A stretch of 61,333 nt of DNA, filler included, from Stramenopiles sp. TOSAG23-2 (lineage: Eukaryota): NCBI GenBank assembly GCA_900128395.1. It is 3 parts of 3 records of this genome, joined end to end, with 100 filler letters (N's around TTAATTAATTAA, not from the genome) between each part and the next. Parts side by side here need not be neighbours in the genome. Positions count along the whole stretch, not along the records: positions 1 to 20,539 come from LT649556.1; 2 more parts are not named here. One strand, 5' to 3'. Positions 3,149 to 41,139 of the stretch are shown here, one piece after another; the stretch's first letter is position 1, and each line of letters opens with the position of its first letter. The position numbers and the translations under genes are program-made. The notes beneath the pieces are model-generated. The model was given only the letters and a program-made list of their open reading frames with translations, searched no databases and was not told the origin of the DNA.

Positions 3149-4459
3149 ATGGAAACGATACCAAAAAATAATGTAGATACAAAAAAACAAAAAACTTCGA
3201 TATTATTTCAACATGTACAAAATATTCCACGATATGAATGGAAAGATCCAAAAGCATTTGAAGCAATGTTAAAACAACAACCTATTGTTATTACTAAAAC
3301 TAATTTAGCTGGTAAAGGTTTAGAAAAATGGTATGATTTAGATTATTTAGGTGAAAATATGTCCCCTAGTGCAATGTTTCATACATACTTTTGTGAAAAA
3401 ACATTCTTATATTCCGATAGAAATGGTAAAAAAGGTCATCCGTATATTTTTGATAATAAAGTCAGAGAAGTAGAAATACCATTTCTTCAATTTAAAAATT
3501 TATTGGAGAAAAAAATAAATAATAATAAACATAATAATGATGATGGTGATGAATTAATTTACCTTCAACAACCATTATATGCTGGTATTGGAGAAAATAT
3601 TACAAAAGATTTCTCTTCTATGAATTGGGCATGGGTCAACGCAATGAGAATGCAATTGGATTTTGGACCATTAACGACAAATACACTTTTAATAGGTCAA
3701 GAAGGTTCAACAACACCTTTACATTTTGATGAGCAAGAAAATTTCTTACATCAAATTGGTGGTACAAAAACATGTTATTTATTTGCTCCTTCGTATTATA
3801 AATATTTTTATCCATATCCATTGCAACATCCATGTGATCGACAATCTCAAATAAATTTTGATGCAATAGATTTTGATCGATTTTCAAATATGCGTGATAT
3901 CTGTTGTAATGATAAAGAAGAAGAAGGAGAAGGAGAAGGAGGAGGAAATAACAATGTAAATGAAAAAAAGGAAAAGAAGAAGAATTCAAATAAAAAACAA
4001 TATTATCATGGATATAAATGTGTTTTGGAACCTGGTGATGTTCTTTATATTCCAAGGTATTGGTGGCATCATATAATAAATGAAAAAAAGACCAGTATGG
4101 CTATTAACTTTTGGTTTAAACCACCAGATTTGGATAAAGAAATATTAAATCAGATTCCTATTACAAATCCTGATATTAAAGTGACATTAAGTCGAAATAT
4201 TGAAAAACTTGCATTAAATGAATTAAAAAATAAACATAAAGTAGCAAGCTTTTTTAAATATCATGATGATAAATTGAATGGGAAAAAAACAACTACAAAA
4301 ACAGGAAAGATAATTGAAGGTTACGAAGAATACTTCAAAGTAGTTAAATCACGTTTAAAATTAGTTTTACGTGAAGAGGATATAGATCCTTTTTTAAGAG
4401 ATTATTTATTTAATGGGAGATTTTCAGGGGTTAGGGTTATAAAATATACGGCCGTATGA
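3149..4459 (+). CDS. JmjC (cupin-8, FIH/JMJD5-like) 2-oxoglutarate/Fe(II) hydroxylase
   Basis: TPLHFDEQENF (HxD), LEPGDVLYIPRYWWH and AINFWF motifs. Confidence 0.9.
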   Translation: METIPKNNVDTKKQKTSILFQHVQNIPRYEWKDPKAFEAMLKQQPIVITKTNLAGKGLEKWYDLDYLGENMSPSAMFHTYFCEKTFLYSDRNGKKGHPYIFDNKVREVEIPFLQFKNLLEKKINNNKHNNDDGDELIYLQQPLYAGIGENITKDFSSMNWAWVNAMRMQLDFGPLTTNTLLIGQEGSTTPLHFDEQENFLHQIGGTKTCYLFAPSYYKYFYPYPLQHPCDRQSQINFDAIDFDRFSNMRDICCNDKEEEGEGEGGGNNNVNEKKEKKKNSNKKQYYHGYKCVLEPGDVLYIPRYWWHHIINEKKTSMAINFWFKPPDLDKEILNQIPITNPDIKVTLSRNIEKLALNELKNKHKVASFFKYHDDKLNGKKTTTKTGKIIEGYEEYFKVVKSRLKLVLREEDIDPFLRDYLFNGRFSGVRVIKYTAV

Positions 4460-4700
4460 TAGATGTAATCAGAGAGAGTGTGTGAGACACGAGGTGAAGA
4501 GGATATAGATCCTTTTTTAAGAGATTATTTATTTAATGGGAGATTTTCAGGGGTTAGGGTTATAAAATATACGGCCGTATGATAGATGTAATCAGAGAGA
4601 GTGTGTGAGACACGAGGGTTTACATGAAAATATACGCACACACAACAAATTTACGTTCGTATATTTTTATATATATATTATATTACGAGAAGTGTAAAAT

Positions 4701-4866
4701 TATAATTTAATTTACGCATAATTTATTTTTAATTTACTCATGATAATTCCTACTCTTCAAAAGAATAAAATAACTGAAATAATCTATCTCACACTACAAG
4801 TGTGTTGATATTCTCATAATCGAAAATACCAATGTAAAATTATTATAACTTTAGATTTTAACCATC
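4701..4866 (+). repeat. Dispersed AT-rich non-coding element, copy 1
   Basis: Matches 20640-20707 (reverse complement, identical) and 51312-51615 (diverged, with insertions). Confidence 0.85.
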
Positions 4867-4940
4867 ATAATCATAGATTATAAAATATAAAAAAAAAAAA
4901 TAATGTTTTCGTACATAATAAAGTTTGTGTTTTTATTCAT

Positions 4941-6651
4941 TTAAAAATCACCATTGCCTCTTCCAACTCTTCTACCATTTGCATCATAAATGTTTGATTT
5001 TCCACCTTTTGAACGTAAAAGTCCAATGATCTCTTGTTTAATTGGACTATCATTATATTCATATGCAAGATCTAATAGAGTTTGTCCATAATCATCCATT
5101 TCATTAATATCATCAATCTTAGTTAATGCTTCACGTACGACTTCTATATCGGATCCTATTACTACTGCATGCCGTTCAACATTTAAATCACCATTGCCTC
5201 TTCCTACAATTCTACCATTTTCATCATATTTATTTGCTTTTCCACTCTTAGTTAATGCTTCACGTACGACTTCTATATCGGATCCTATTACTACTGCATG
5301 CCGTTCAACATTTAAATCACCATTGCCTCTTCCAACTCTTCTACCATTTGCATCATATTTATTTGCTTTTCCACCTTTTAAACGTAAAAGTGCTATGATG
5401 TCTTGTTTAATTGGACTATCATTATACAAATATGCAAGATCTAATACAGTTTGTCCATAATCATCCATTTCATTAATATCATCAATCTTAGTTAATGCTT
5501 CACGTACGACTTCTATATCGGATCCTATTACTACTGCATGCCGTTCAACATTTAAATCACCATTGCCCCTTCCTACAATTCTACCATTTTCATCATATTT
5601 ATTTGCTTTTCCACAATGCTTCACGTACGACTTCTATATCGGATCCTATTACTACTGCATGCCGTTCAACATTTAAATCACCATTGCCTCTTCCTACAAT
5701 TCTACCATTTTCATCATATTTATTTGCTTTTCCACCTTTTTGACGTAAAAGTGCAATGATATATTGGCGATTACATGCATATGCAACGCCCAGGGGAGTG
5801 GATCCCCACCATAACCTGGACAGAGAGTCTGCAATGGACGTCTTCTTATTAATGCTATCAAGAGACAGATGAGATAATAACAATTTAATCAACTCAGTAG
5901 TCATTCTGCCATTACTTGCTGCATAGTGTAATACATTCCATCCATCACTATCTGCAATATTAGGATCAGCTTCACCTTGTTCAATTAAATATTGAACTAC
6001 TTGGAAATGTCCTTTCTTTGCAGCTATCATTAAAGGTCTCTTATCCCAACCACCCCAATTTGTACCGACTTGATTCACGTATTCTCTCAATGTCATATTA
6101 CTATTAATACCATTCATGCATGTAATAAATAATTTCACATCCTGTAAACGCCCTTTTTCACATGCACATACCAATGGCGTGCCTTCTGGGAATTCGGTTT
6201 CATAACGATCGTTTAAACGATTCAAAACATTTTGATAATATATATCACGTATTGTCGGTACAGTTAAAAATCGTTTTGTTGTTTTTCCAAACATATTCAT
6301 TAACGCTTGACCATCGTTACCAAGATATGGTATTATAGTTTTCACACATATATCATCAATCCCAGGCAATCTTGAAAAGTCACGCTTTACTACCTTTTCC
6401 ATGCATTGTTTATCTTGTTGCCTCACTTTAAGATGCACCATTGTTTCCATTCGTTCTAAAACACCTTTCTTGTTTTCTGGTGTAAGCTCACCATTACCAT
6501 TAGATAATTTATCATACATTGTATTTATAAAATCATCAATAAATGGTACTAATGAAATTGTTTTTATTTGTGATGTATTATTATTTTGTGTAGTTATTGC
6601 TGACGTCCTCGGTCTTTTTGCTGGTGGTGGATTGATAGTTAACGATGCCAT
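4941..6651 (-). CDS. NLS / F-box-like / ankyrin-repeat protein; frameshift near 5613 lies in the repeat array and is probably a mis-assembly
   Basis: PPAKRPR; FSRLPGIDDICVKTIIPYL; ankyrin motifs GTPLVCAC, RPLMIAA, NVLHYAA and GQTVLDLA; full and partial 80-aa C-terminal units. Paralog of 37368-38837. Confidence 0.8.
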
Positions 6652-7071
6652 GTTGTTGTTATATGTGCTGTGTATGATATATATATATATATATGTTTGT
6701 TTCTCTTGTCAAATATATTTCTTATAATTCTATATTAGAGTATATATTATATATATTTTTAAAAATAATAATATTTTTTACATACACGCATACAACACGT
6801 ATATATTTTGAAAAAAAATTGATGATGATTATTTTATATTCAACGAAGCAGGAATACACACACACACACCGCGCAGTAAACACACACAACACAATTTCTC
6901 ATTTATATATCATATTAATTTACAATGGAACTTGACTTAACTTATAATTCGTCTTTGCTTTTGGCATTGTCATCCATCTACCTTTCTTTTCATATTCCGT
7001 TTTGACTTGTTGAATGAATGAATTATTAATTTCACGCTCAACTTCATCCATAGCAGCTATATCATATTAAT

Positions 7072-8625
7072 TTACAATGGAACTTGACTTAACTTGTAAT
7101 TCGTCTTTGCTTTTGGCATTGTCATCCATCTACCTTTCTTTTCATATTCCGTTTTGACTTGTTGAATGAATGAATTATTAATTTCACGCTCAACTTCATC
7201 CATAGCAGCTCTGGCTTCTGCTTTTCTAGCATTGTCTTCACTAATTTGACGTATTAAATCACGACGATATTGTTTCTTATTTTGTAATCGTTTTTTAACA
7301 TCATTATCTTGCAATTTTAATTTTTCACTAGCAATTTTATTCATCTTAATTGCAAACTCTCTATCTTTTTTTCTTAACGCTTCTTCCTCCTCCCTTTTTC
7401 TTATAATTGCTGCATCAATCGAGGCCATCATGTCACGTTTCATCTTCTCTTTCTTCGCAATCGCAGCTTTTTCTTTGTCATCAACTCTTTTTTGTTCTGC
7501 TTCCCGATGTCGCTTATTTCTAGCTTCTTCAGCAGCAAATATTGCTGCTTCATTATTTTGCGTTGCTTGACCAATGGCAGTCAATTTATGCTGGCGTGCA
7601 TATAGATCAGCTAATCTTTTCTCACGTGCCCTTTCCTGTTTATCAAGAATTTCTTTCCATTGCGCATCGATTCTAGCTTCTTCTTCCCACATTTTCTTCT
7701 TTTGATTCTCACGCATAATCAAAATCTGTGCATTTTCTTTTTTCACAATTTCCAATTCTTTCTGTTTGCGCAACATATCACGACGTTTTTCTTCTTTTTC
7801 ATCCTCTAATGCTTTTTTTTGCCTTTTAACAATTCGCATTTCTTCGAAATGTTTTTGTTTACGCGCAGCATCCGTACGACGTTTTGTTTCCTCCAGTTGT
7901 TTTTTTCTTTCTTGTTGAATCAACTGATGTTGTCTTAAACTTCTGCGTTTAATTTCTTTTTGCTCTTTAATCCATTTTTTCTTTTGCATTTTTTCATATT
8001 CTAGCCAATACTTTTTATCTTCATTTGCCTTGATTCTCTCTGCATATTTTGACTCTTCTTGTTTTTTTAAATATGACTGTATATCTTTAGCATGCTTACG
8101 CCTAGCTGCTTCTTTCTTCTTTGCATCCATTTCACTTTTTTCTGCAGAAAACATATTTAACATTGCCCATTCATTTGTCTTTGCACCTTCTTTTCTCTTA
8201 ACATAAAAGTTTGACTCTGGCACATCTGATACTATTTTTTGTGTCGGCAAAGAAGTCTTTGCTGATTTTATAGCTTCTTTCATTTCGTGTTGAAACTTTT
8301 TCTTTGATTTTTTCTTTTCATATTTATTTCTTGGATCTGGATAATGATCAATTCGTTTTAAACGATTAGGATTACCAATACTTGCTTTATTGGTTATTTT
8401 AACTCGTTTTAAAAATTCGGTTAAATTTTGATCTTTTCCATGGTCATTTCCATGTATCCTATCATGTCGTATTTTACGTGCACGTGCATGTTTCCGTGCT
8501 AACTCTTTAGCATGCATATCATTCATTATTTTTTTTTTCCTTGCAACTTTATCTTCACCAGATGCACGTTTCCTAGATGATTGTGCTGCATTTTTTGCAT
8601 ATATTTGTAACATTCGTGTCGTCAT
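7072..8625 (-). CDS. Long charged coiled-coil protein, trichohyalin-plectin-homology (ciliary MIP)-like
   Basis: 517-aa E/K/R/Q-rich helical ORF with YRRDLIRQI and AAMDEVEREIN-type C-terminal motifs. Confidence 0.6.
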   Translation of the reverse strand: MTTRMLQIYAKNAAQSSRKRASGEDKVARKKKIMNDMHAKELARKHARARKIRHDRIHGNDHGKDQNLTEFLKRVKITNKASIGNPNRLKRIDHYPDPRNKYEKKKSKKKFQHEMKEAIKSAKTSLPTQKIVSDVPESNFYVKRKEGAKTNEWAMLNMFSAEKSEMDAKKKEAARRKHAKDIQSYLKKQEESKYAERIKANEDKKYWLEYEKMQKKKWIKEQKEIKRRSLRQHQLIQQERKKQLEETKRRTDAARKQKHFEEMRIVKRQKKALEDEKEEKRRDMLRKQKELEIVKKENAQILIMRENQKKKMWEEEARIDAQWKEILDKQERAREKRLADLYARQHKLTAIGQATQNNEAAIFAAEEARNKRHREAEQKRVDDKEKAAIAKKEKMKRDMMASIDAAIIRKREEEEALRKKDREFAIKMNKIASEKLKLQDNDVKKRLQNKKQYRRDLIRQISEDNARKAEARAAMDEVEREINNSFIQQVKTEYEKKGRWMTMPKAKTNYKLSQVPL

Positions 8626-9476
8626 CTTTTTTTGTTTGTTTGTTTGTTTTATGTTTAAATATTAATTATCAATAACAAATAAAAAAATAAATCTAATAAT
8701 ATAACTACTAATAAATAGCAGTTGTTATCGTGTTAAATTATATATTTATATCTGTATTTATATATACAGAAAACAAAATAAATAAACAGTATTCCTATGA
8801 TATATTTCGCTTACAACTCTTCAATCATGAAACACAATCGTAATAAACTTGTTCTATAACAAGAAGAGAGAGACTAAATATATATATTTTATTAATTTTT
8901 TTGGTATGGTTACAAATAATAATATATATTTTTTTTTAACAACAGGTAAATACAATGGGGAAACCCAATATTTTATTTCGCAAAATTAAAACCTTCAACA
9001 ACTCTATAAAACGTCTTTATTTCAACCCATAGTTGCTACACAGCACTACAGTATGAACATTCATAGAGTAAGGCGTGGAAATTGGTCTATCAGATACTGA
9101 AACATTAAAAAACCGGAAATATAACAAACTCATGTGTAAATCCCTTAAAACTTAAATTTGGTGTTTTTTTTGCTAGGTAATATCATACTATTTTGAACTC
9201 AACTTTTGTATACTAATGACCAAATCACGATCAATAAAAATCCCAAAAACTGGAAGGCCAGAAGGCAAACAACCTTGGTGGAAAGTGGAAAGGGGAGTTT
9301 ATTCGTTCGTTCAGCCAGTAACTTACAAGTATATAGTATTTTTATTAGATTTAAACAGTTGAATAAATGGAATGGAACAATATATCTTTCATAAAAATAT
9401 ACATAAATTGTTGTTTTTTCTTTGATATTATTGATAGAAATATTGAAGAAAGTTTTTAACAATAGCAGGCATCACA

Positions 9477-10151
9477 ATGTCAGCGAATTATAGAGGTTTG
9501 AATTACCATGGTGGTGGAACATATCAAGAATCAAATATGAATAATACCAGAGCACGTTTTAATGCTGCTTCCTCACCAAATAATAATAATAATTATAATC
9601 ATCATATATTAAGTACACCATCGTCCAACCAAGGTGATACTTTATTACCGTCTATTAGCTCACGAAAAAGCTCGCCCAGAAAATCATTCGCCGCCAAAGA
9701 TGGTGGCTTTGGTAAATCGTCCCTCCTTTTATGTTTCATATCATTAACACTTTTTGCTTTATGTATATATTTAATTTTTACTCGAAAATGTGCTACAAGG
9801 TCTGATTATGAAGCTTTGCAAGAAGAACATGAATTATTAAAAATGAAATTGTCTGAAGTAAAGTCAATCAGTTTAAATTTAAAAGCAAAGCATCAACGGC
9901 GATCAAAAGTTTTGCAAAATTTATATACGTCCAATTCTAAATTACGTGTTATGTTAAAAGAAGTTTGTATGGTACACGTTCCGGACGCTCTGAAACATGA
10001 AAACGAAGGAATAGAAGATTTTAAATTAGACAAAAAACATGATGAGAAGAAGAAGAATATAAAAGTAGAAACATTAGCCAAAAATAAGAAAATGCAAGAG
10101 GCAAAGTTAGAGTCGGATCAAAATAAAAAAGAGCCAAGTGGGCCATCATAA
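9477..10151 (+). CDS. Single-pass membrane protein with a coiled coil
   Basis: 224-aa ORF with one hydrophobic segment (LLLCFISLTLFALCIYLIF) followed by a heptad-rich region. Confidence 0.65.
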   Translation: MSANYRGLNYHGGGTYQESNMNNTRARFNAASSPNNNNNYNHHILSTPSSNQGDTLLPSISSRKSSPRKSFAAKDGGFGKSSLLLCFISLTLFALCIYLIFTRKCATRSDYEALQEEHELLKMKLSEVKSISLNLKAKHQRRSKVLQNLYTSNSKLRVMLKEVCMVHVPDALKHENEGIEDFKLDKKHDEKKKNIKVETLAKNKKMQEAKLESDQNKKEPSGPS

Positions 10152-10384
10152 ATATAGTTATATACATATACAATTTTTACGAACCGTATAATTCTTTCTT
10201 TACAAAGATAGTTTGATAGTTTTTTCTCTTACACAAGCAAGAATATTTATTGATAAGTATTTTATCACTTCGTATGATATGCATATCAATAACCATATCA
10301 TACTCGTATCATACAGTACTTCGTACATATAATTTTATATTCGCATATTGACATATGGTGTACATATTTCTATTTCTATTTAAC

Positions 10385-13300
10385 TCAACTAAAATCAATA
10401 TCATCGCCTCCTAAACCCCAATCACTACTAAGTGCGATATCAAGTTGATGTTTCATTACTTCAAAAGAAGAATATTTGGGTAACTCGACGTTAAAAAAGC
10501 AAGTATCTGCTGTGGGTAACAACATATCAGGATTTCCAGATTTAGTTGACGCTTTTAAAAGCAACCTTGCACCTTTTTCATTCCACTCCCGATCTGAACT
10601 TGGGATTCGTTTTTGCCCCCATGCAAATTTAATAAATCTTCTCCTTTCATCATTAGAATACGATTCTAAACATTTCCAGAAAAATGCGATTCGTGGATCC
10701 TCTTTTGCCATTCCAGAATACTCTGTATGCCGTTTTAATAATTCGATATCTATCTCTGGCGTACCGCAAATTAGCATTTCTAATTCAGACCAATTTAAAA
10801 TCCACAAAAGTTGTGGTGGAACAATCGCTACTAATCCCCTGGCAACCGCTTTGATTTGATTTATAGGTTGAATTTTTAATAAAGATTGTCCATCGACTGA
10901 TTTATCAACTGCTTCTAAGTCTTCCTTTGTGACTTCCTCGCCAACTAGTGGTTTCCAGAATAACGATGGTAAATCCAATGCTAGCTTCACCCCTGTTCGC
11001 AATGCCATACCCATTATTCGTCCCAAAAATTCATATTTTTTTAATGACAAATAATCCGTACGTCTTGCTCCTGGAATGAATTTTTCTCTATTCTCACCAA
11101 AACTCAATAGTTGATTTGGACATGGGACCAACAATGAAAGAAGACCATCAGGGGATTGTAACTCCCTGCATATCTCATCAAAAAATTCTCTATATGGTCC
11201 ACCCTCACCAACAACATGTTCTTTTTGAAATTTAACTTCAAAGGCCAAATGTGGAGGTGCCATATCAGCTGTGCGTGGGCGTAATCTCCATGGATTTACT
11301 TTTTCTAATCCTAGGAATTGTTCCATTGCTTGGCCAAAAATTGTATATTCTTCCCCATTTTGCAGAGCAGATGCTGCGGTGTAACGGTTAATAACGATCC
11401 GTGGTCTTTCCGGTTCGGATGAAGTTGATGTTGCCTCTAGCATAGATGACACTATTTGAAACTTCACATTTGAGAAAAACAAGTTACGACATTCGGAAAA
11501 AAATTTACTTATGGATGAATTCAATTGAATAAATTTATAATTTGGCCAACATAGAGTATCTTTCAAAACAAAATTTATCCGATTTAAGATTAACCAACGA
11601 AGGTGTAAGAGTTCAACTGGGATATTTTGTAACGCTTTATAGCTAATTGGCATTGCAGCTGATTTAATGGTTTCTATATTGACCCTGTTGTTACTTTGCA
11701 TTATATTCGATGCTAATGAGACTAATGTTTCATCCGTATTGAGTTTGAATGTATTTTTCATTAGTAATAAAACATCTTCAATACCTGGGCCCAACTTTTG
11801 AACAACATCACTATGTTCTCTCCACAAAGCAAATACAAACTTAATTGGGACAATTTTACTGCTTCTTATACATTCCAACACATCTAAGCATTCAAGCCAT
11901 TGTTGTAAATGTTTATCCAGCGAGGGCATTTTTGGCCGTGCAGAGTGAATGACACCAGCAATTGATTGCAAAAGCGTAGATGGCAATTCTCCTTGTTGTC
12001 TTAAAAATGATAGTTCTGTGCAAAGCGGTGCCAAAATATGTCCATATTCAAACTTCGTCACGTAAAATAACTCGCGTAATACGGCATGGGCTCTTATTCT
12101 GAAAATTTGGGGCATTCGTGGGGCATAAGAGAAACGGGCACAGACATTAATATAGGAACGCAAAATTTCCCCAACATCAATCTTTTCCTCTCTTTCAATA
12201 CCATCTAAGTTGCCATTGATCATTTGTAAAATCAACCAAAATGCAAACTTCATCTTAGTTGAAAATGGTGACACTTGAAACATAACAACTGAATCATTTC
12301 CCGTATTTCGAAAAGTTTGTCGCTTAAATCGCATCCATATTGAATTATATGGTAAAGTAATAGATAGCAGCGGTTTTCGAATTGATCGCAATAATGTGGT
12401 GCATGATGAATCATTAAAAATGTCTATCGTATCATCATCTCTTAATTTACATTGTTTAGAAAATTGTAATAAAATGCCCATTCCCTCTGGAACTTGAATA
12501 TGTACACGCCGTCGCCCGTGATGCGGTAAGGTTACATCCATCGTATATCTTCTTATTCCCCTCATCACGTTTTCTAATAAATGTATTGGTGTTTCCGGCT
12601 TTTCGCAAAGTAGTTTCTTTGCATATGAAATCAACGATGGTGAATTTCGAAATTTAGAATCATGTGCATATTCCAACGAAACATTAAACAACATATCCTT
12701 CGAATAAACAGTCTCGTCGGGATCATCTAGAACACCACTCTCATCGCCTTTGCTATTTGCAATTTCATCTTTATAATCATTGTGGGTTTTTAACAACTTC
12801 AATCTGATAGCAAATGAACGAGAAAGCAGTTTCATATAATCTTTTTCAGCATTTAAAAGAGTATCGTCAAAAGCAATTGTTGTGGCACTTGATTTTTTCA
12901 TTATACCTTCTTCATCTGTGTTTCTATTCTTAATAAAATCAATTTTACTGCCATAACCAAATAGTATACTCTCATCTACACATACAGCAACCAATTGCGA
13001 TGGTCTAAACCACCATCGCTGATAAATATTTTTCTCGTTGTCCTGAAATTCTACAAATGCAATCTCTTTTACTAGATCTATTTTAACAACTTGGCCAACG
13101 TAACCATGTAAATCTTCTAAGCCAGAATTTTGCTGCGTATCGTGGTTGCTTTCCTGTATAATTCGCACTGCCATTCCGACCCATATTTCTTCCATGTGAA
13201 GCGAACGTCCGACGTATTGCAAACAATAACCGGTATTAAGAAACTTATCATTACCATCCAGCTCAACTGGCATCGGAGGTAATGACAACCCGATGTCATC

Positions 13301-16300
13301 CAACATCATTCGAGCCATTGCAATATTTTCCGAGCCACCAGATTGCAACACTTGTAAAATTAATTGACTAGTCCTTGGGGGTATATGGCGCTGTTGTAAT
13401 AATGCAATTATACTTTCCAACCATTCCATTTTTTTCTGTGAAATACCTCGGGAACCACTTGAATGTAGATATACTTCCTCTTCCTTTGAAAAACATTCCA
13501 TCGGCATAATGTGTTTCAAGCTTGATTCTACAATCACCGTTGAGCTCGTTGTATGATTGAAGCAGGCCAACTCCAATGCCACTTTTGTTTTCCACGGTCT
13601 AACTGCACGCCTTCTTAAAATATGGATATCGCTTTTTTTTGATTGTTCCTTTTGTGAATGGTCCGATAATTTTTCATCGATATCGTTTGTTGGAGACCCT
13701 AAACGCCCACTTCCACCACCGTCCCTATCACTTGTAGTAAATTTCTCTGACTGTGTGTTTCGTATCATATTTGTATCTTTCGTAATTTCTAAGTCGTCGA
13801 CAAGACCTTCCCAACTTTCTCGCTCCGGGAAAAATACAATAGCGGACGCTAAATCACTTCCTGGTGCATGGTGAATGGCCCTTATAATGCCTACACAGTC
13901 ATGGTTGATTCCATCCCAGCCTAATACAGGCTCCATGACGGTATTCCTAACTTTAACGTAATCTCCAACTTGAATGACATCATCGCTCTCCCTTGTTTCG
14001 TATAGCATTTCTTGCTTTTCTACGCTATGTTCTGTTGTAGACGCTGTATCTTTAGCTTCACCATCAGGTTTGCCCGTTTGGTGTTCATTGATATTATTAT
14101 CATTCTTATCACCATCATTATTATTTTCATCTGAGTGATTGCTTCTGTTTGTAGTATTTTCTGCACCCGTAGTATCTTTACCTGATGGGTTCACTCCAGT
14201 TTTCAAGATTATCGTTTCATTGTCACTATCTGCAAGTCTTTGTTTGATTATTTCACCATCTTCAAAACTTATCATGACAGCTGGAATTCGTATATCTAAA
14301 CCATCATCAGTATCATTTTCAGGAAGACCCATTCGCCAATCTTTTGACAATCCTTCTGTTGATATAACTAAGACTCCCAGTGCGCCAGCAGATTGGCAAT
14401 TACGAATTTTTACGCTAAAAGCAACGTTGCCTCTATCAACTAATACGCAGCAACCAGCGACATCAGCTGCATTATTGAGCGGAGTTTCTGCATATGGTGG
14501 GTCTGCAATTTTAATTTGCAAATTTAGTCCCGGTGCTGGAGGTGGTGCTGGTGCAAACGATGAGACATTATGATTCAAATATCTCCCTGCAAACACAACG
14601 TGGCTGTGTTTAGCACATTCTTCAATTATCGTTTGATCATTTGATAAGTTTGATAATTCTTCGGCGTGTGTTAAAGCCCATTCTGCAGACCTTTGAGGAT
14701 CTTGTCCATGCGCCTCCAATACTCGCATCATTGCTTGTATCATATTTTCACCTCCATCAAACATATCTGCAAGTGGGATAGCCATTTGACGGCTATACCA
14801 GCATTCACACGGTGTAATTGGTTCAACAGTTCCTATATGAATATCTTCTTCTACTTTTCTTGCAATTTCTTCATCTATTTTTGCCTGTGATAGTCGTATA
14901 TTGTGATAATGAAGCATTCGCTTTTGGCGATCTATCGTCGTGCTGCTGTTAACGCTATTGATACTGTTGCTGTAAGAACCCCTTCCTTCTGGTGCCCCGT
15001 ATACAAACGGGCTATCCTTACCGAAATTAACCCGCAAAGCTGCACATTGGTTCGAAAATGCAACAGCTGGATAAAATATCCCGAAGACGTTAGTAAATGC
15101 TAAACCAAGTGGTTTACCATTTAAAGTGTAAAATATTGTCCCTTCATCTGCGTTCCAACCACATCCAACAACATCGCCAACTTGACCAAAAGCTTCAGTA
15201 AATGGACTCTTTTCCATAAACCCAGCAGGTCTTGGGCCTCGTGTGTGTGTACGAAACGGTGCAATCTTTTTGGATGATTTTTCCATCCAAATGTTCCATT
15301 TATCTTCCCAACCGATAAAATGCACCTGTATCTGTGTCTTATCCTCACTTTCTGCAATAACTCGAGCAGGTCTCCAACGAACAACGCCGGTGTAATCCTC
15401 TATGTCCAACGGTGCTCCCAGTCGAAAATCTACTTCGTGTGATGCACCAAGGGAGGACCATTGAGCTTTTTCGCCACTTTTTGAGTATACTGAATAGCTT
15501 CCAAGTCCCCATTCTAAACCGGTATTGGTTGTATCTGTTCCAGGGACGTCAGACCAAAGGCCAACAGAAAATCCCGGTTTATCCTGCATGAAATTGTATG
15601 AATCAACTGAAACGACTGTCACTTCAAAATAAAAATTAGAGGCTGCTGCTGGAATTGGATCGTTTGCCACTACTACTACACACTCTGAACGTCGTCCAGG
15701 GGCTTGTTCCGCTCTCCTAGGGTCTTCTTTTAATTTACGAAAAGGAAACCCAGCAAATTGTACCGTGTCCGCTATCAATCTTGGACTTTCCCCTTCAAGT
15801 AAATTATCATCATCACTGGCACCCACTTTATTTTCTACAAACATCATATGCCACGACAATTTTGTATTCCAACCAACAGGACAAGATAGATTGCTATTAG
15901 ATTTATGTTTTTCCAGTAAAACTACATTATCATCGCCTGTTTCTGTTGGTATATCAGTAATCTTAAATGCAGCGGCCGTAGCACGAGCTTTTATGTCACT
16001 TGGTGTAAGAATGGTTGATGATGGTTGCCCAATCGATTCGACCCAAGAAAATGAATTTGCAATGCGTTCAGTAAATACAGATGGATTTACATGCACTAAA
16101 TTGGTTAAAAATCTAAAAACGCGAGTTTTTAAAAAGGTATAACTCCAATGATCGCGTACCCCAATAGTTTTTGATCTATCAGCGGAGGATGACACTAAAG
16201 ATAAATCTCGTTGCAGAAAATTATTTATTGCCTTAAAATGCTTTTCGGTAAATAGTGGGTTTAGAAGCTCTACGACGCCACGAGAAGGAATTTCATCCAT

Positions 16301-19240
16301 TTTTCTAAGCTCCTTGAAGGATATTGTAATTGGTATAGAGTTATTGTTCAATAAAACTGTTGCAGAACCTTGTGCGTAATTCAACGATAAAACATTTCCA
16401 TATAAACGAGGCGCTGTATTGCACGTTAAAACTTCCACTACATTTCCAATCGACAACAAGTCGTTTTGTTCTAACGAACAAACAGTAACAGCACCTGTTA
16501 TCATTTCTTTCTTCGTCTTGCCAAATTTTTCAAATGACGTCAAATCACACCAAGAGTGCGCAACTAATTCATTGATAACACTCTTCCATGACGTATTACA
16601 AATCAACCATCGCAACAACAAAACTAGTTCCTCCGTCAACGCAGTCCGTGCAGCAAAAGAATAGCGCTCGCCATGCGAGTTATTGCCAAATTTTTCTCTT
16701 ATTGCATCATTTCTTAGAACAGCATCGCTAGAAACTTTTTCAACTACAATGGTTTGTAGTCCGGTTGTTGCAAGAGTTTTTGCATTGTTTATACATTCAC
16801 GACGCGAGCCTTCGAGGACAACAGTGTATTCTTTCTTTTGGTCTGCATAATCAGCTTGTACCAAGTCTACAACAACTGTTGAGTTGCACATGTTTCTTGG
16901 GGACAAACTTTGGACTTTTCTTACTATTTCATCATATGGAACGCCTGCATTCAAACAAACCAGCACATTGTGAACTGGTGGCATAGAAATGCAGCAAGAT
17001 CGTGAAAATCTAGCGTTGTCTTTTTTCGTCGAGGCGCCGCAATCACAGTAAAACCTACTGCGCGTGGCAAAAACAACGTCATGGCCAAAATGGCATGTTT
17101 TGGCACAAATTGCACACACTCCATTTTGTTCTATTAAGCAACATGTCAAACAATGATACCAATCCTGCTCAACATGTTGTTGTCCTGTATCACTAAACGT
17201 GCAAAACTTTTCTTGTCCATCTTGTGTTGTAAAAACTGTGTTATTTTCTCTCAATTCTGAATGTTTCCTTTTCCTCGATAAGACTACTTTCGCAAGTTCC
17301 TCGTTATTTACATCTACTTTGCTAGGAACGCGTTTATTCTTATTAATATCATGAACAAGAAGCAGACTTCCGATTTTCTTAAACAACTGATTCACTGTAT
17401 TTATCGATGAATGATTTTCATTACCGGGTTCTTTCTCTCCTTCTTGCTGAGATTTTTTAACAGCACGTAATTTATTGTATCTAGGAAGTATGAAGCGTAG
17501 CAATCGAATGCAAATTCGTTGTACCCTTAACGTCATGCAACTACCATTTCCTACGATCACGCTTAATATAGCATCTTTCGGCTCTGCAAAGAGCTCGAAT
17601 GGATAATTTTTCCAAGCTATAGAGTCACAATGATCCGCTAATATACATAGCAATCCATGTAATTCACGTTCGTTTTTGTAGTATTTATATTTCAACGCTT
17701 TAAATACTACATCAAAAAATATTTTTTGAATTCGAACAGGGGATGATCTGTCCTCCTCCTCTCCAGATTTTGAACTGATTGTTGTTTTGACACTTGTCTT
17801 TTGACTGGCGGAGATACCAATGCTATTATACTCATTTTCAGGAACCGAAGATTTAATCACGTCATTCCACCCTAAACAAACCGTAGCTAACTTTGAAAAT
17901 GCTGACCATGTTGCATAGCGGAGCTCGGCATGGGCTTTTTCTATATATAAAAATTCTCGCTCTCCAAAATTGAATTGTACCGACGAAGATAAAGGCATGG
18001 AAAGTGATGGGTACATGCCACCCGTATTTTCAAATTGCTGTGACTTGATTAAATTTGTGATTGGGATGCTTATTTCTATATGACCATTCACTGTTACGTA
18101 TAACTTCGAGTTTTCAAAATTCAATCCAATACCAACAACATCATTTATACCAAAACTGGAAACACGCGCATTTCTACCATCATGCATTACTAAATATTTT
18201 CCATTTACACTGATTTTCCCGTTCGAATTAAATGAAAAAATAGATTTTTCATCATTAAACAAGTCTGGACTTTTGCGCAATAGATCACCGTACAAACTTA
18301 CAGTAAATGCGGGCTGTTGTTCTTTTGACTCAAGAAATTTGACTTCAAAATACGATAAATTAGCAGACAGGGACTGATCGCTGCAAACGATTGAGACTAA
18401 ATCAAATGGAGATTTTCCTTGGTTTACTTTAAATCGATCTCTCATAGGGGAAATAAAACTTAACCAAGCGGGGTCGTGGCTTTTATCTTCGGGTGCTGGA
18501 GTTGGTGAAGATGAAGGTGAGCGAGTATTGTTTTCTCCATCTTTTCCAATTAAAGTTGAAGGCACCTTAAATAAACGATTAGAACTTTCATTTATCCATT
18601 CATTCCATCGCTCGGACCATCCTTTGAATTTCACTAAATATTCGATGCCACTAAGATCTTTATTAGTTCGGTTAGCAATGATTATACCAACTCTTTTTAC
18701 ACCAGTCATATATTTATCAATGATATAAACTTCATCGCCAGTACTCATAAGGTTTGAAAGAGATATAATATCGTTATCTACTGCAACTGCTAATGGGTTT
18801 GTCTTTGTATAACCACGGAAAGCAATATGTTCTATACCGATATCTTCGTCTCTATTCTCGCCATTCATTAGTTTGACAAATAAATATTTTCCACGCATAG
18901 GCTTCTCAAACACTATCGTGCCGCTACATAATCGGCTACTAGAAGCGTTTTGTTTGTCTAATTCTATCAGGACTCCGCCAGTACAATTCTTTGGCTTCTT
19001 TATGTTACAAAATGACTTTTTTGTACAATTGCCAAAAGCATTAAAATCATCTAAAGATGGTAGAATGGATGTTGAAAATATTGCAATCGATGTCACAGGG
19101 GATGCAAATGGGTTTTTGTAAGGACATCGCAAATACACAGCAGTCAATTCAAACTCTTCTACTGTTTTTGTTGTCAAAATTACGTTAACATTTTGTCGCA
19201 TCCTACTTCCTGCGTCCGAACAATATACCTGAGAGTCATT
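10385..19240 (-). CDS. Giant HECT E3 ubiquitin ligase (Tudor/MBT-like, SPRY x2, UBR-box, PA, CPH-like, HECT), 5'-truncated at a junction near 19241
   Basis: Uninterrupted ORF of about 2950 aa with GEGGPYRE, LPTADTCFFNVELP (catalytic Cys), the UBR-box QDWYHCLTC..FYCDCG, SPRY YFEV..GDVVGCG..YPAV and PA VLVDRGNVAFSVK..IPAVMIS. The first ~17 codons of the track ORF come from the inverted duplicate. Confidence 0.9.
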   Translation of the reverse strand, partial: NDSQVYCSDAGSRMRQNVNVILTTKTVEEFELTAVYLRCPYKNPFASPVTSIAIFSTSILPSLDDFNAFGNCTKKSFCNIKKPKNCTGGVLIELDKQNASSSRLCSGTIVFEKPMRGKYLFVKLMNGENRDEDIGIEHIAFRGYTKTNPLAVAVDNDIISLSNLMSTGDEVYIIDKYMTGVKRVGIIIANRTNKDLSGIEYLVKFKGWSERWNEWINESSNRLFKVPSTLIGKDGENNTRSPSSSPTPAPEDKSHDPAWLSFISPMRDRFKVNQGKSPFDLVSIVCSDQSLSANLSYFEVKFLESKEQQPAFTVSLYGDLLRKSPDLFNDEKSIFSFNSNGKISVNGKYLVMHDGRNARVSSFGINDVVGIGLNFENSKLYVTVNGHIEISIPITNLIKSQQFENTGGMYPSLSMPLSSSVQFNFGEREFLYIEKAHAELRYATWSAFSKLATVCLGWNDVIKSSVPENEYNSIGISASQKTSVKTTISSKSGEEEDRSSPVRIQKIFFDVVFKALKYKYYKNERELHGLLCILADHCDSIAWKNYPFELFAEPKDAILSVIVGNGSCMTLRVQRICIRLLRFILPRYNKLRAVKKSQQEGEKEPGNENHSSINTVNQLFKKIGSLLLVHDINKNKRVPSKVDVNNEELAKVVLSRKRKHSELRENNTVFTTQDGQEKFCTFSDTGQQHVEQDWYHCLTCCLIEQNGVCAICAKTCHFGHDVVFATRSRFYCDCGASTKKDNARFSRSCCISMPPVHNVLVCLNAGVPYDEIVRKVQSLSPRNMCNSTVVVDLVQADYADQKKEYTVVLEGSRRECINNAKTLATTGLQTIVVEKVSSDAVLRNDAIREKFGNNSHGERYSFAARTALTEELVLLLRWLICNTSWKSVINELVAHSWCDLTSFEKFGKTKKEMITGAVTVCSLEQNDLLSIGNVVEVLTCNTAPRLYGNVLSLNYAQGSATVLLNNNSIPITISFKELRKMDEIPSRGVVELLNPLFTEKHFKAINNFLQRDLSLVSSSADRSKTIGVRDHWSYTFLKTRVFRFLTNLVHVNPSVFTERIANSFSWVESIGQPSSTILTPSDIKARATAAAFKITDIPTETGDDNVVLLEKHKSNSNLSCPVGWNTKLSWHMMFVENKVGASDDDNLLEGESPRLIADTVQFAGFPFRKLKEDPRRAEQAPGRRSECVVVVANDPIPAAASNFYFEVTVVSVDSYNFMQDKPGFSVGLWSDVPGTDTTNTGLEWGLGSYSVYSKSGEKAQWSSLGASHEVDFRLGAPLDIEDYTGVVRWRPARVIAESEDKTQIQVHFIGWEDKWNIWMEKSSKKIAPFRTHTRGPRPAGFMEKSPFTEAFGQVGDVVGCGWNADEGTIFYTLNGKPLGLAFTNVFGIFYPAVAFSNQCAALRVNFGKDSPFVYGAPEGRGSYSNSINSVNSSTTIDRQKRMLHYHNIRLSQAKIDEEIARKVEEDIHIGTVEPITPCECWYSRQMAIPLADMFDGGENMIQAMMRVLEAHGQDPQRSAEWALTHAEELSNLSNDQTIIEECAKHSHVVFAGRYLNHNVSSFAPAPPPAPGLNLQIKIADPPYAETPLNNAADVAGCCVLVDRGNVAFSVKIRNCQSAGALGVLVISTEGLSKDWRMGLPENDTDDGLDIRIPAVMISFEDGEIIKQRLADSDNETIILKTGVNPSGKDTTGAENTTNRSNHSDENNNDGDKNDNNINEHQTGKPDGEAKDTASTTEHSVEKQEMLYETRESDDVIQVGDYVKVRNTVMEPVLGWDGINHDCVGIIRAIHHAPGSDLASAIVFFPERESWEGLVDDLEITKDTNMIRNTQSEKFTTSDRDGGGSGRLGSPTNDIDEKLSDHSQKEQSKKSDIHILRRRAVRPWKTKVALELACFNHTTSSTVIVESSLKHIMPMECFSKEEEVYLHSSGSRGISQKKMEWLESIIALLQQRHIPPRTSQLILQVLQSGGSENIAMARMMLDDIGLSLPPMPVELDGNDKFLNTGYCLQYVGRSLHMEEIWVGMAVRIIQESNHDTQQNSGLEDLHGYVGQVVKIDLVKEIAFVEFQDNEKNIYQRWWFRPSQLVAVCVDESILFGYGSKIDFIKNRNTDEEGIMKKSSATTIAFDDTLLNAEKDYMKLLSRSFAIRLKLLKTHNDYKDEIANSKGDESGVLDDPDETVYSKDMLFNVSLEYAHDSKFRNSPSLISYAKKLLCEKPETPIHLLENVMRGIRRYTMDVTLPHHGRRRVHIQVPEGMGILLQFSKQCKLRDDDTIDIFNDSSCTTLLRSIRKPLLSITLPYNSIWMRFKRQTFRNTGNDSVVMFQVSPFSTKMKFAFWLILQMINGNLDGIEREEKIDVGEILRSYINVCARFSYAPRMPQIFRIRAHAVLRELFYVTKFEYGHILAPLCTELSFLRQQGELPSTLLQSIAGVIHSARPKMPSLDKHLQQWLECLDVLECIRSSKIVPIKFVFALWREHSDVVQKLGPGIEDVLLLMKNTFKLNTDETLVSLASNIMQSNNRVNIETIKSAAMPISYKALQNIPVELLHLRWLILNRINFVLKDTLCWPNYKFIQLNSSISKFFSECRNLFFSNVKFQIVSSMLEATSTSSEPERPRIVINRYTAASALQNGEEYTIFGQAMEQFLGLEKVNPWRLRPRTADMAPPHLAFEVKFQKEHVVGEGGPYREFFDEICRELQSPDGLLSLLVPCPNQLLSFGENREKFIPGARRTDYLSLKKYEFLGRIMGMALRTGVKLALDLPSLFWKPLVGEEVTKEDLEAVDKSVDGQSLLKIQPINQIKAVARGLVAIVPPQLLWILNWSELEMLICGTPEIDIELLKRHTEYSGMAKEDPRIAFFWKCLESYSNDERRRFIKFAWGQKRIPSSDREWNEKGARLLLKASTKSGNPDMLLPTADTCFFNVELPKYSSFEVMKHQLDIALSSDWGLGGDDIDFS

Positions 19241-19649
19241 TGACAAAGAAAAAGCTGCGATTGCGAAGAAAGAGAAGATGAAACGTGACATGATGGCCTC
19301 GATTGATGCAGCAATTATAAGAAAAAGGGAGGAGGAAGAAGCGTTAAGAAAAAAAGATAGAGAGTTTGCAATTAAGATGAATAAAATTGCTAGTGAAAAA
19401 TTAAAATTGCAAGATAATGATGTTAAAAAACGATTACAAAATAAGAAACAATATCGTCGTGATTTAATACGTCAAATTAGTGAAGACAATGCTAGAAAAG
19501 CAGAAGCCAGAGCTGCTATGGATGAAGTTGAGCGTGAAATTAATAATTCATTCATTCAACAAGTCAAAACGGAATATGAAAAGAAAGGTAGATGGATGAC
19601 AATGCCAAAAGCAAAGACGAATTACAAGTTAAGTCAAGTTCCATTGTAA
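19241..19649 (+). CDS. Partial duplicate: C-terminal part of the coiled-coil gene at 7072-8625
   Basis: Identical translation ending ...KTNYKLSQVPL*. Confidence 0.8.
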
Positions 19650-19968
19650 ATTAATATGATATAAATGAAAAATTGTGTAGTGTGTGTTTACTGCGCGGTG
19701 CGTGCGTGCGTGTGTGTGTGTGGGTATTCCTGCTTCGTTGAATATTATTTAAAATAATCATCAATTTTTTATCAAAAAATCTCGTACGTGCACACGTGTA
19801 AAAAATACGAGTATTATTATTTAAAAATATAATATACGAAGTCGTATATATATATACTCTCCAATATAGAATTATAAGAAATATATTTGACAAGAGAAAC
19901 AAACATATACGTATATATACTCGTATGTATATATCATACGAAGTACACAGTTCACATATAACAACAAC

Positions 19969-20261
19969 ATGACATCGTTAACTATTAACCCACCACCAGC
20001 GAAAAGACTGAGGACGTCAGCAACAACTACACAAGATAATAATACATCACAAATAAAAACAATATCATTAGTACGAACGTACCATTTATTGATGATTTTA
20101 TTAATACAATGTATGATAAACTATCATCTAATGGCATCAATCGTAGTGTAATTCGCCAAGAGATCATTGCACTTTTACGTTCAAAAGGTGGAAAAGCAAA
20201 TTATTATAATGATGAAAATGGTAGAAATGTAGGACCAGGCAATGGTGATTTGAATGAATAA
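19969..20261 (+). pseudogene. Internally deleted, frameshifted copy of the F-box-like/ankyrin gene
   Basis: MTSLTINPPPAKR start; 8-nt insertion at 20074-20081; after correcting it the frame reads ...DKLSSNGI joined in frame to NRSVIRQEIIALLRSKGGKAN...GNGDLNE*. Confidence 0.85.
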
Positions 20262-20539
20262 AAAACACAAACTTTATTAATGTACGAACCGTATTTTTTT
20301 TTTATATCACTCTCTCTGATTACATCTACTGTATCATATATATCATATATATAACGAAATTTACGCACGTACCACTCCTCTCCAATCACACTTTATATTT
20401 TCGCTCTTCTATAGCACACCTCGCATGATATACTTCGTATAACATATTATATTTTATTGATTTTCTGTACATAATTCACACCCAGAAAATCTCCCATTAA
20501 ATAAATAATCTCTTAAAAAAGGATCTATATCCTCTTCAC

Positions 20540-20639
20540 NNNNNNNNNNNNNNNNNNNNNNNNNNNNNNNNNNNNNNNNNNNNTTAATTAATTAANNNNN
20601 NNNNNNNNNNNNNNNNNNNNNNNNNNNNNNNNNNNNNNN
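20540..20639. other. Artificial contig-joining spacer
   Basis: N44-TTAATTAATTAA-N44 (stop codons in all frames), identical to 41040-41139. Confidence 0.97.
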
Positions 20640-20707
20640 TATTTTATTCTTTTGAAGAGTAGGAATTATCATGAGTAAATTAAAAATAAATTATGCGTAA
20701 ATTAAAT
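20640..20707 (-). repeat. Dispersed non-coding element, copy 2, truncated by the contig end
   Basis: Reverse complement identical to 4705-4772. Confidence 0.85.
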
Positions 20708-20951
20708 AATATTATGGTGCTCGTAAATTAAATTTAAAAAAATAATTCGTATTATACTCCGTATATTAATTATTTTTATATTAATTGAATTGATAATGCG
20801 CATTACAAAAACCGTTCTTATAATATAATACACTCGAGAATACTAATTTTTAATTTACACACACCACGACTTTTATATATATTGTGACATGTTGTGACCA
20901 CCTGTGAGCAATTACTGATGGTTTACCCAAAGAGTTTCTTTTTGTCATTTT

Positions 20952-32633: not shown

Positions 32634-33808
32634 TTATTCATCAGTTGTAGCTTCACCTTCACCCTCATTTGTTGTCTCTTCCACCTGCTCTACTGCTGCT
32701 TCTTCTTCGTTTACTATTAATAATCGTTTTTTTTCAAGCGTTTGTGTCATATCTTCTAATTCTTTATTTATACGATCTTGTTCCTCTTGTACTTTCCCTC
32801 ATTTGTTGTCTCTTCCACCTGCTCTACTGCTGCTTCTTCTTCGTTTACTATTAATAATCGTTTTTTTTCAAGCGTTTGTGTCATATCTTCTAATTCTTTA
32901 TTTATACGATCTTGTTCCTCTTGTACTTTTTTATTAACTATTTCTTGTAAATGCTCAGGAAGTTCAATCATTTCCTCTTCTTCAACAACATCTGTTTTTC
33001 CTTCATCATCCATTTTATTTTCATCATTACTATTCATATTATCACTATCAATTACTTCTGAATTTTCCTCCACAACTTTTTTTGGCACCGGACGTGGTAC
33101 CTCAGTTGCAGCAATCAATGGAGTAGGACGCAATGGCGTTTCAACGACAACGTCTAATGGCAAACGCCTTAATTCTTGTTCTTGCGTAAATGCAACTTCA
33201 TATGCTTTATATTGACGGAAATACGTCGATGTCATGAAAACAGTAATTTTTTTCACTTCCTCCTTGTTAAAAACTTTCACACGTTCCGGTGCTTCTTCGA
33301 CACTATGTTGCATTACTAAATTATGAAATGCTTTATATGCATCATCGCGTTTTAAAAATGTGGCTGATGTTATCTTGGTAGTTTCATCACCTTTGCTTGC
33401 ATGAAATGTACGTTTTGCTATTGCAAAAAAACCTGACGTTTGTTCATCTGTAAACTTATTTTCTTGGCAAAATAAAACTGCATTTGCCATATAGTCAACA
33501 TATATATCCCCACGAACTTCATCGTTGTTTACGTTTAATATTTGTTTCACATAATTGCGACGGCGGGCCATCGTTGTATCCCCTACAATGTTTTCATCAT
33601 CGAATGTAATTTTACCACCGTCGCCTTTTTCATCTTCCGTTATATTTTCCTCAGGTCTACCAGGCATTATACGTGCTTGGTCTTCGTTTAAATCCACCCA
33701 TATTAATCCACGTTCTGGTTTCACAACTTCTTGTACGACTTCCTCCGTTGCTTCCACTACATTTTCCGCTTCCTCTCCTTCCACAATATTTTGTTCACTA
33801 TCTGACAT
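32634..33808 (-). CDS. CFAP119: Flagellar central-pair C1a-32 / CFAP119 (CLAMP family)-like protein
   Basis: FCQENKFTDEQTSGFF, LVMQHSV and TYFRQYKAYEVAF motifs. Collapsing a 134-bp duplication gives the ending ...NEGEGEATTDE* with the stop at 32634-32636. Confidence 0.75.
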
Positions 33809-34383
33809 TTTGTATATGTATATGTATCTTATATAATTGTTCTCGTATTGATCATATTGATTTATATTCTGTTCTATCTATTCCTGTCAATATGTACATA
33901 CATCAGTGTAGTATATTATATTTTCTTAAAACAATATAATTAGAATAATATATATCATATTGATTTATATTCTGTTCTATCTATTCCTGTCAATATGTAC
34001 ATACATCAGTGTAGTATATTATATTTTCTTAAAACAATATAATTAGAATAATATATATATAGTTATTAAAAAAACGGTTAATTGTTGGGAGATGCCTCTA
34101 ATTTGGCGATGTAGATAATACATAATGCTGTACTGTAGTCGAATCTACAATGGTATTGCAATGCTATTAAAATTTAAAATATTTTGTATTCTTATTAGCT
34201 TGTTTTTCTATCAATCCGTATACTTGACTAGAAAACCCCAAAAACCCACCACATACATTTCATACATATTTTAGATATGATCATGCCACATTATCATGCC
34301 ATTCCATTGCATTGCATTATACGTGTAGGCGCCTTGGTTCTTTCCTATCTTATTCAACATATTTTCCCGGCAGATTTTGAAAG

Positions 34384-41039: not shown

Positions 41040-41139
41040 NNNNNNNNNNNNNNNNNNNNNNNNNNNNNNNNNNNNNNNNNNNNTTAATTAATTAANNNNN
41101 NNNNNNNNNNNNNNNNNNNNNNNNNNNNNNNNNNNNNNN
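41040..41139. other. Artificial contig-joining spacer
   Basis: N44-TTAATTAATTAA-N44. Confidence 0.97.

Follow-up and report, generated by a model that had tools for sequence, protein, structure and literature searches.

Candidate excision footprints of Tc1/mariner-type elements among TA-bounded micro-insertions of an uncultured marine stramenopile

What kind of process adds a few bases at TA dinucleotides, each time beginning with C and ending with G? We address this question with a stretch of 61,333 nucleotides (nt) from the genome assembly of Stramenopiles sp. TOSAG23-2 (hereafter, the window), in which two versions of the interval between a TPH gene and a JmjC gene differ by six such micro-insertions. 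Words of the same form—TA, a core running from C to G, and a second TA (TA-C..G-TA)—are enriched throughout the non-coding DNA of the window. We read the micro-insertions, with a probability of roughly 0.55, as excision footprints of Tc1/mariner-type elements, one family of which would have had ends like CGAA...TTCG. The scar type is a known one; what is new is its instance in an uncultured marine protist, along with a bias toward gene 3' ends that is unexplained.

Six micro-insertions at the TPH-JmjC interval

The two versions, block B and haplotype A, are most likely two haplotypes of one TPH-JmjC interval:

19241-20539, plus strand: block B, the short haplotype, with a TPH 3' fragment, intergenic DNA, an internally deleted ankyrin remnant, and the JmjC 3' end (X2 records 3 and 4)
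4371-7057, minus strand: haplotype A, the same interval with the full ankyrin gene (6651 down to about 4941; X6 record 25, with L001 being A-like)

An earlier note on this DNA had described two copies; the pair of versions is real, but we read it as haplotypes of one locus and not as two loci. The evidence comes from contigs of four independent public runs (X2, X4, and X6 among these) placed on positions 540-20539, where stretches without contig cover were not counted as evidence, and from a metagenome scan that yielded two loci only. The first of these, L001, is a metagenome contig carrying a third haplotype, with 98% protein identity in the adjoining TPH gene, that ends inside the region; the second, L002, is a contig from another study that carries a more distant relative (81% protein identity). 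Record 4 of X2 (2506 nt) spans the TPH gene from end to end (8620 to 7058) and passes directly into B (19664-20157), and X2 record 3 joins B (20210-20484) to the JmjC 3' end (4425 to 3992), the joint being from 20484 to 4425. Because the X2 records thus join TPH to B and B to JmjC, B is the short version of this interval and 4371-7057 the long one. An A-type spacer follows TPH in X6 record 25 and in L001. The haplotypes differ by the full ankyrin gene, present in A and missing from B; L002 has no ankyrin gene between TPH and JmjC (L002:1504-1790). This presence/absence polymorphism sets a long allele with a gene of more than 350 amino acids beside a short allele (19664-20539) with an in-frame N-terminal and C-terminal remnant, now frameshifted.

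An alignment of 19480-20260 with 6440-7080 (reverse complement) shows six words in B where the earlier note had placed them, each lacking in the other haplotype (strand is given where one applies):

19806-19813: TA-CGAG-TA (TACGAGTA), a haplotype B-specific micro-insertion, found in the X2 contig but in neither A nor L001
19835-19846: TA-CGAAGTCG-TA (TACGAAGTCGTA), a micro-insertion polymorphic inside the B lineage, lacking in X2 (by exactly 10 nt), A, and L001
19908-19913: TACGTA within a (TA)n run, either inserted or made by a double substitution of TA to CG; A and L001 read TATATA
19918-19925: TA-CTCG-TA (TACTCGTA, the reverse complement of CGAG), interrupting a (TA)n run; A has a gap of 12 columns here, and X2 has the word
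19937-19945: TA-CGAAG-TA (TACGAAGTA), a micro-insertion; A reads TCATACACAG
20072-20081, plus strand: TA-CGAACG-TA (TACGAACGTA), 8 nt inserted, which puts B's short ankyrin remnant out of frame, from alignment and translations; present in X2

Three of the inserts are clean, duplicate the TA, and lie outside TA runs: AAAAATA[CGAGTA]TTATT, TCATA[CGAAGTA]CACAG, and TTAGTA[CGAACGTA]CCATT. MAFFT placed the gap for CGAAGTA elsewhere; the placement adopted here, that of the earlier note, costs one added 2-nt gap and no mismatches. The remaining three interrupt a (TA)n run, and their alignment is ambiguous. All six cores begin with C and end with G, and 20 of their 29 bases are G or C, in DNA of 27.6% G+C. 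In the alignment of L001, CGAGTA and CGAAGTCGTA are missing, and TA stands in place of B's CG at 19910. The 8-nt insert does break the ankyrin frame: B reads ...KTISLV and then RTYHLL..., with a stop at codon 61, where A reads ...KTISLVPFIDDF..., and without the insert the frame of the B remnant would be open to 20262 (sequence read by eye). The 9-mer TACGAAGTA or its complement is also found at 10317, 20431, 24859, and L002:1555, and the 10-nt insert at 19835 has ATACGAAGT in common with a site 100 nt away.

Are these differences also seen outside the assembly? Over the 494 nt of 19664-20157, X2 record 4 departs from B at 2 substituted positions and through three deletions that add up to 13 gap letters (2 + 1 + 10). 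The longest of these deletions falls exactly at 19835, and the other five inserts are present in this independent run and are thus not assembly artifacts. An artifact of amplification, sequencing, or assembly would have some precedent in this assembly, which has a probably chimeric inverted 19240/19241 junction, tandem duplications missing in other runs, and contigs concatenated with spacers. However, the X2 run holds its five inserts while differing from the window at many other sites, and the L002 contig, from another study, has the same word class; we regard such an origin as highly improbable.

The insert at 19835 is absent from A, L001, and X2; we therefore take it to have entered B recently, the less simple alternative being its precise loss from X2. 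Could the words instead be ancestral and have been lost elsewhere, through deletions mediated by TA...TA microhomology? There are two allele classes only, and five of the six differences are unrooted, the L002 spacer (287 nt) being not alignable with the window and giving no outgroup for them; a TA-mediated deletion would, moreover, take the core and one TA exactly. Against this, six deletions would be required, each of a C...G segment only; the insert at 19835 occurs in B only; and the window-wide excess of TA-C..G-TA words described below argues for gain over loss. We consider the reversed polarity very unlikely. Across the locus, the TA duplication is clean in five indels: CGAGTA, CGAAGTA, CGAACGTA, the 10-nt insert at 19835 (relative to X2), and CTGTA at 20327.

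The last of these is one of several further words at which the haplotypes can be compared:

20327-20333: TA-CTG-TA, the canonical Tc1-type word, inserted in B (acatctaCTGTAtcata; acatcta[CTGTA]tcata) relative to A (acatctatcata)
20283-20293, plus strand: TACGAACCGTA, 21 nt past the B stop codon, an older motif with a decayed form, gtacgaaaacatta, at the homologous place in A
20362-20371: TACGCACGTA, homologous (local homology) to TACGAACGTA of A (4652-4661, other strand)
20431-20439, minus strand: TACTTCGTA, which is TACGAAGTA in the JmjC sense, 14 nt past the JmjC stop in haplotype B, from the sequence and from X2 record 3, in which JmjC follows B
4570-4579: TACGGCCGTA in A, missing from B (A tcataCGGCCGTAtatttt, tcata[CGGCCGTA]tatttt; B tcatatatatc), and found also at 4447-4456 in the 123-nt duplicate

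The 11-mer TACGAACCGTA recurs, identical, at 10178. Two motifs are present in both haplotypes in mutated form (TACGCACGTA in B for TACGAACGTA in A, and GTACGAACCGTA in B for GTACGAAAACATTA in A). Because some motifs are shared but mutated between A and B, others are specific to B, and one is polymorphic within B, the events are of different ages, as for a continuing process.

Enrichment of TA-C..G-TA words in non-coding DNA

Do such words stand out elsewhere in the window? We partitioned its DNA into a part covered by open reading frames (ORFs; 44.1 kb, 35.0% G+C) and the remaining non-coding part (17.3 kb, 27.6% G+C), counted neighboring TA dinucleotides 2-8 nt apart, and classed each core by its first and last base. 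Non-coding DNA holds 78 TA-C..G-TA words against 32.8 ± 5.4 expected from dinucleotide-preserving shuffles, while the mirror words, TA-G..C-TA, number 18 against 18.5 in the same shuffles. After removal of block B and of one copy of each duplicated segment, 65 remain against 28.2 ± 5.2 expected, and none of 300 shuffles reaches 65 (maximum 46). Trinucleotide-preserving shuffles of this reduced set give 34.6 ± 4.6 (maximum 48 in 200), and its mirror control stands at 17 against 14.4-17.4 expected, 14.4 being the value with trinucleotide shuffles. Cores with CpG (31 versus 13.7) and without it (34 versus 14.6) are both enriched. Among 32 patterns made of a dinucleotide, C or G, N(0-6), G or C, and the complementary dinucleotide, TA-C..G-TA has the top z score (5.7; 81 versus 46). 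The excess in coding DNA is small (55 versus 39).

The same few cores recur at unrelated sites of the non-coding DNA. The CAG/CTG core (TACAGTA/TACTGTA) is found 13 times against 4.0-4.5 expected, an excess of about threefold, and the core CG six times. CGAG/CTCG (TACGAGTA/TACTCGTA) occurs 4 times against 0.45-0.86 expected and CGAAG/CTTCG (TACGAAGTA/TACTTCGTA) 4 times against 0.15-0.34; CGAACG/CGTTCG is found three times and CGAACCG twice. CGA-class cores are absent from the 44 kb of coding DNA. In the 287-nt spacer of L002, CGAAG and three CG cores occur among 14 close TA pairs, with no G...C core. Two clusters in the window combine several words:

10301-10325: TA-CTCG-TA tca TA-CAG-TA-CTTCG-TA, a cluster in the 3'-3' spacer beside the HECT gene
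47888-47903: TA-CGAG-TA-CGATCG-TA, two words with a common TA, 10 nt after the stop of an MFS gene

In a ranking of 7-9-mers, microsatellite words lead, followed by TATCATA/TATGATA (32 versus 11), TACGAAC (9 versus 1.5), TACGAACC (5 versus 0.2), and TACGAAGT (6 versus 0.4). TATCATA/TATGATA is the word expected as a mariner-type scar (from TCA...TGA ends) and may be a by-product of TA-rich low complexity.

Could these be ordinary cis-regulatory motifs (ACGT-core sites or a signal for 3' ends, for example) created by point mutations, with misalignment of diverged AT-rich DNA making them look like insertions? Their enrichment in non-coding DNA and near stop codons would fit this explanation, as would TACGTA, a palindromic ACGT-core site, and the three cases in (TA)n runs are ambiguous in alignment. 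But five indels duplicate the TA cleanly, one of them between haplotypes only 2 substitutions apart in 494 nt; the words have no flank consensus past TA and AT-richness; they are not kept between haplotypes or in the relative; and one of them lies inside a reading frame, which it breaks. We judge this explanation quite unlikely.

Proposed transposon excision and the bias toward gene 3' ends

How would excision produce such words? An element of the IS630/Tc1/mariner type would integrate at TA and duplicate it; on excision, a few of its terminal bases would stay behind on either flank through staggered cuts, and end joining would seal the site as TA, terminal bases, and TA. A full element would once have stood at each site, and the residue would run C...G, not G...C, because the element ends would be inverted repeats beginning with C. 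Two families may have contributed: one with CAG...CTG ends, giving TAC(A/T)GTA, and one with CGAA...TTCG-like ends, giving the CGA class. In the second family, two 4-nt overhangs and variable nibbling would yield CG, CGAG/CTCG, CGAAG/CTTCG, CGAACG/CGTTCG, CGATCG, and CGTCG, as well as the CGAA-TA forms seen in L002 and in X2 junction fills; CGCACG would be a mutated CGAACG, by A/B homology. Haplotypes A and B would have gathered different scars. The ends of Minos presumably begin with CGAG, which would make TACGAGTA/TACTCGTA an exact Minos scar.

The papers cited here describe much the same kind of residue. Elements of the IS630/Tc1/mariner group duplicate TA, and end joining after their excision leaves a TA pair and a few terminal bases; the Sleeping Beauty footprint is TAC(A/T)GTA on the other strand (PMC2874221). 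Footprints are given as 2-4 bp, with palindromic AT repeats preferred (PMC7913693), and the Minos footprint as 6 bp, to which TA+CGAG+TA is alike in size (PMC10992017). The footprints of Sleeping Beauty, Tc1, ZB, and Minos share with the words described here the TA target and its duplication, a short residue, a C...G core, and AT-rich palindromic targets. Comparison of close rice genomes likewise traces small indels and filler DNA to transposon excisions; a clean duplicated target remained after only 8 of 94 of these, and most led to deletions or to fillers averaging 13 bp (PMC4423477). The rice study deals with known elements; the words of the window, in contrast, are short and stereotyped, with no element seen for them.

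Which ends do the cores themselves favor? Ranking was limited to cores of at least 4 nt, since with 3-nt cores TATCATA/TATGATA swamped it. With block B included, CGAA is first of 162 candidate 4-nt ends (12 versus 2.92, P = 5.5e-5). The earlier note had proposed an element with CGA...TCG ends, and this holds up in part: the TA-duplicating inserts, the recurrent cores, the enrichment of a Tc1-type word, and the rank of CGAA with block B speak for it, while neither a donor nor a transposase is found in the window.

Several observations weigh against excision footprints. Only at 19835, among the six, is the direction of change—insertion or deletion—shown. Without block B, the CGAA end falls to rank 7 of 162 (7 versus 2.56, P = 0.016), so the exact end sequence rests mainly on block B. 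Among 501 TA-bounded pairs in the 61-kb window, none is an inverted-repeat element starting with CGA or CAG, and Pfam finds no transposase domain in 30 translated ORFs. Whereas the footprint size given for the superfamily is 2-4 nt, which CG, CGAG, and CTCG fit, half of the six cores exceed it (CGAAG, CGAACG, and CGAAGTCG; 5, 6, and 8 nt), and CGAACCG, CGAAGTCG, and CGGCCG need filler bases (one each for CGAACCG and CGAAGTCG). Six scars in 280 nt, a local density unlike that of the known systems, amount to about nine times the window's average motif density, and upstream of TPH none of the 11 indels between L001 and the window is of the TA-C..G-TA type. Finally, the CGA class keeps to gene 3' ends, with a bias toward the sense strand, again unlike known footprints: ten cores lie in 3'-3' and none in 5'-5' intergenic intervals (intervals broken by contig ends left out), and 12 of 15 TACGA words read in the same direction as the gene closest to them (hand count, P = 0.035). 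Neutral scars of perfect inverted ends should show neither bias.

Some of these points may be reconciled with excision. The longer cores would fit if two 4-nt overhangs joined without annealing, and the local cluster could be a hot spot, each scar making two new TA targets; cut-and-paste elements tend to hop locally. The very high traffic and major mutational force that the earlier note had envisaged are not required, since scars accumulate and persist while recognizable; a few active copies at ordinary rates would suffice, as a rough inference. The absence of such indels upstream of TPH indicates that the TA-C..G-TA process is one source of indels among others and not dominant everywhere; a block of about 98 nt in L001 upstream of TPH contains TACTCGTA and is not a clean case. 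No donor-type element is present in L001 or L002, no allele with a full element at the same TA is found among the contig matches listed for the four runs, and no Rfam family matched.

The best of the 501 TA-bounded pairs are a 170-nt palindrome and ankyrin repeats. The palindrome (35755-35924) has 85-nt arms without a spacer, 98% complementary, within a 2.3-kb stretch without a Pfam match, and may be an amplification or assembly artifact or a real hairpin.

What could confine the CGA class to gene 3' ends, a feature that the earlier note had not foreseen? The CAG/CTG cores are distributed differently, with 3 in convergent and 7 in divergent intervals (CGA versus CAG contrast, Fisher P = 0.003), and the density of TA is alike in the two interval types (133 and 137 per kb). 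Such a word follows the stop by no more than 40 nt at 8 of about 23 gene ends (hand count), where the non-coding average predicts about 2. The restriction and the sense bias could reflect targeted integration, selection, or a function in transcripts.

One alternative to passive footprints is that micro-insertion is directed to TA and linked to the 3' ends of genes, through either a terminator-homing element family with scars retained as elements of 3' untranslated regions or an undescribed break-and-repair process where transcription ends, in which a 2-nt staggered TA break is filled with a short set sequence. The 10-to-0 contrast at equal TA density, the sense orientation, the excess of words close to stops, the lack of a donor element in the window, and the ATACGAAGT that the 10-nt insert has in common with a site 100 nt off all favor it. 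But the words are not kept at orthologous ends, being missing after TPH in A and L001 and differing at the JmjC ends of A, B, and L002; 15 of about 23 genes have no word near the stop; the counts are small; and CAG-type words suit ordinary Tc1 scars. To our knowledge, no process is known that gives TA duplication with a fixed filler. We hold such a process to be unlikely, though not negligibly so. More specifically, the CGA inserts might not be passive scars but products of a TA-targeted system at 3' ends: a transposon family homing to terminator regions, with residues of 4-8 nt serving as sense elements of 3' untranslated regions (UACGAA...), or an undescribed repair of 2-nt staggered breaks where transcription ends. 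We find this proposal doubtful. The absence of words from most genes and their loss or change at orthologous ends argue against a required function; of the properties of a 3'-end signal, neither prevalence (8 of about 23) nor conservation among orthologues is seen, and the orientation is sense in 12 of 15.

If the words are transposon scars, then an uncultured marine flagellate records a long cut-and-paste history at single-base resolution, with some 30-45 TA-C..G-TA words above expectation in about 16 kb of non-coding DNA of the window. Such scars add CpG-containing bases to AT-rich spacers, vary between co-occurring haplotypes, and can break reading frames. They could serve as population-genomic markers for uncultured protists and could help infer the ends of elements not yet found. 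What merits follow-up is the CGA class, whose sense bias and limitation to 3' ends are unexplained; should the limitation hold genome-wide, it would point to targeted integration or co-option.

A literature word search for the 8-9-mers returned primers and oligonucleotides only. Eliminated sequences of the ciliate type are a poor match: the segments are 4-10 nt long, and the window's standard stop codons and long ORFs are at odds with the ciliates known for such sequences. Eliminated segments in Paramecium measure about 26 bp or more, and their removal from the somatic nucleus is precise; the far shorter inserts described here come with no sign of nuclear dimorphism. The likeness to the TA-bounded internal eliminated sequences and TA-indels of Paramecium lies in the TA bounds, the Tc1/mariner-related ends, and the presence or absence between versions of the DNA (PMC3464196). 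The available excerpt of a marine stramenopile population-genomics paper mentions indels and nothing like these inserts (PMC13724720).

Assembly structure and gene content of the window

The assembly mixes haplotypes, with probable chimeric joins and false tandem duplications, which matters to its users. The arm at 19241-19663 (423 nt) is 100% identical, in inverted orientation, to 7058-7480. Because X4 record 20 tracks the HECT gene to 19246 and then departs from the window sequence, the 19240/19241 inverted junction of the HECT 5' flank with block B is probably a chimeric join. In that case the called start of HECT (19291) would fall in foreign sequence, and the window would not give the true N-terminus. 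Less probably, the B block could be a genuine segmental duplication, inverted, within this single genome.

At seven places the window holds a tandem duplication of 117-172 nt in two nearly perfect copies (216-493, 1732-1973, 2620-2853, 4371-4616, 6906-7209, 32662-32929, and 41747-42090), along with an eighth of 103 nt and 92% identity (33831-34036). They look like assembly artifacts, because an X2 contig skips the 121-nt one and an X6 contig the 152-nt one, and several of them distort gene 3' ends. Spacers of the form N44-TTAATTAATTAA-N44 at 20540-20639 and 41040-41139 indicate that the window consists of at least three contigs joined, so that adjacency across the spacers is meaningless; further N runs lie at 46011-46034 and 49686-49705. 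In haplotype A only, a telomere-like GGGGTTAGGGTTA stands at 4427-4439, just before the JmjC stop, with its duplicate about 123 nt on; the JmjC gene of haplotype B has a different C-terminus and stop. An AT-rich repeat (4701-4850, 20640-20711, and about 51330-51420) has a summed contig depth of 1400-11000 for four metagenome runs, while neighboring bins have about 5-30. Its other copies show the junction variants TTATAAC, TACGTATAAC, or TACGAATAAC at one site, and no inverted ends were seen.

The window is AT-rich (27-41% G+C per 2 kb) and densely coding, with 29 uninterrupted ORFs of at least 150 amino acids. Their products are eukaryotic and include an ISWI-type remodeller, a HECT ligase of 2968 amino acids, a large NAD-glutamate dehydrogenase, an Rtf1-like Plus-3 protein, the flagellar proteins CFAP77 and C1a-32, a JmjC/cupin protein, and an ankyrin-repeat gene family. 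No relative of the ISWI gene was found in IMG/VR. One EukProt entry shares 79% identity with the ISWI protein, metagenome proteins share 70-71%, and stramenopile and other proteins about 50%. The public runs that contain this stretch, at least six RNA runs among them, are mainly marine or seawater metagenomes and metatranscriptomes.

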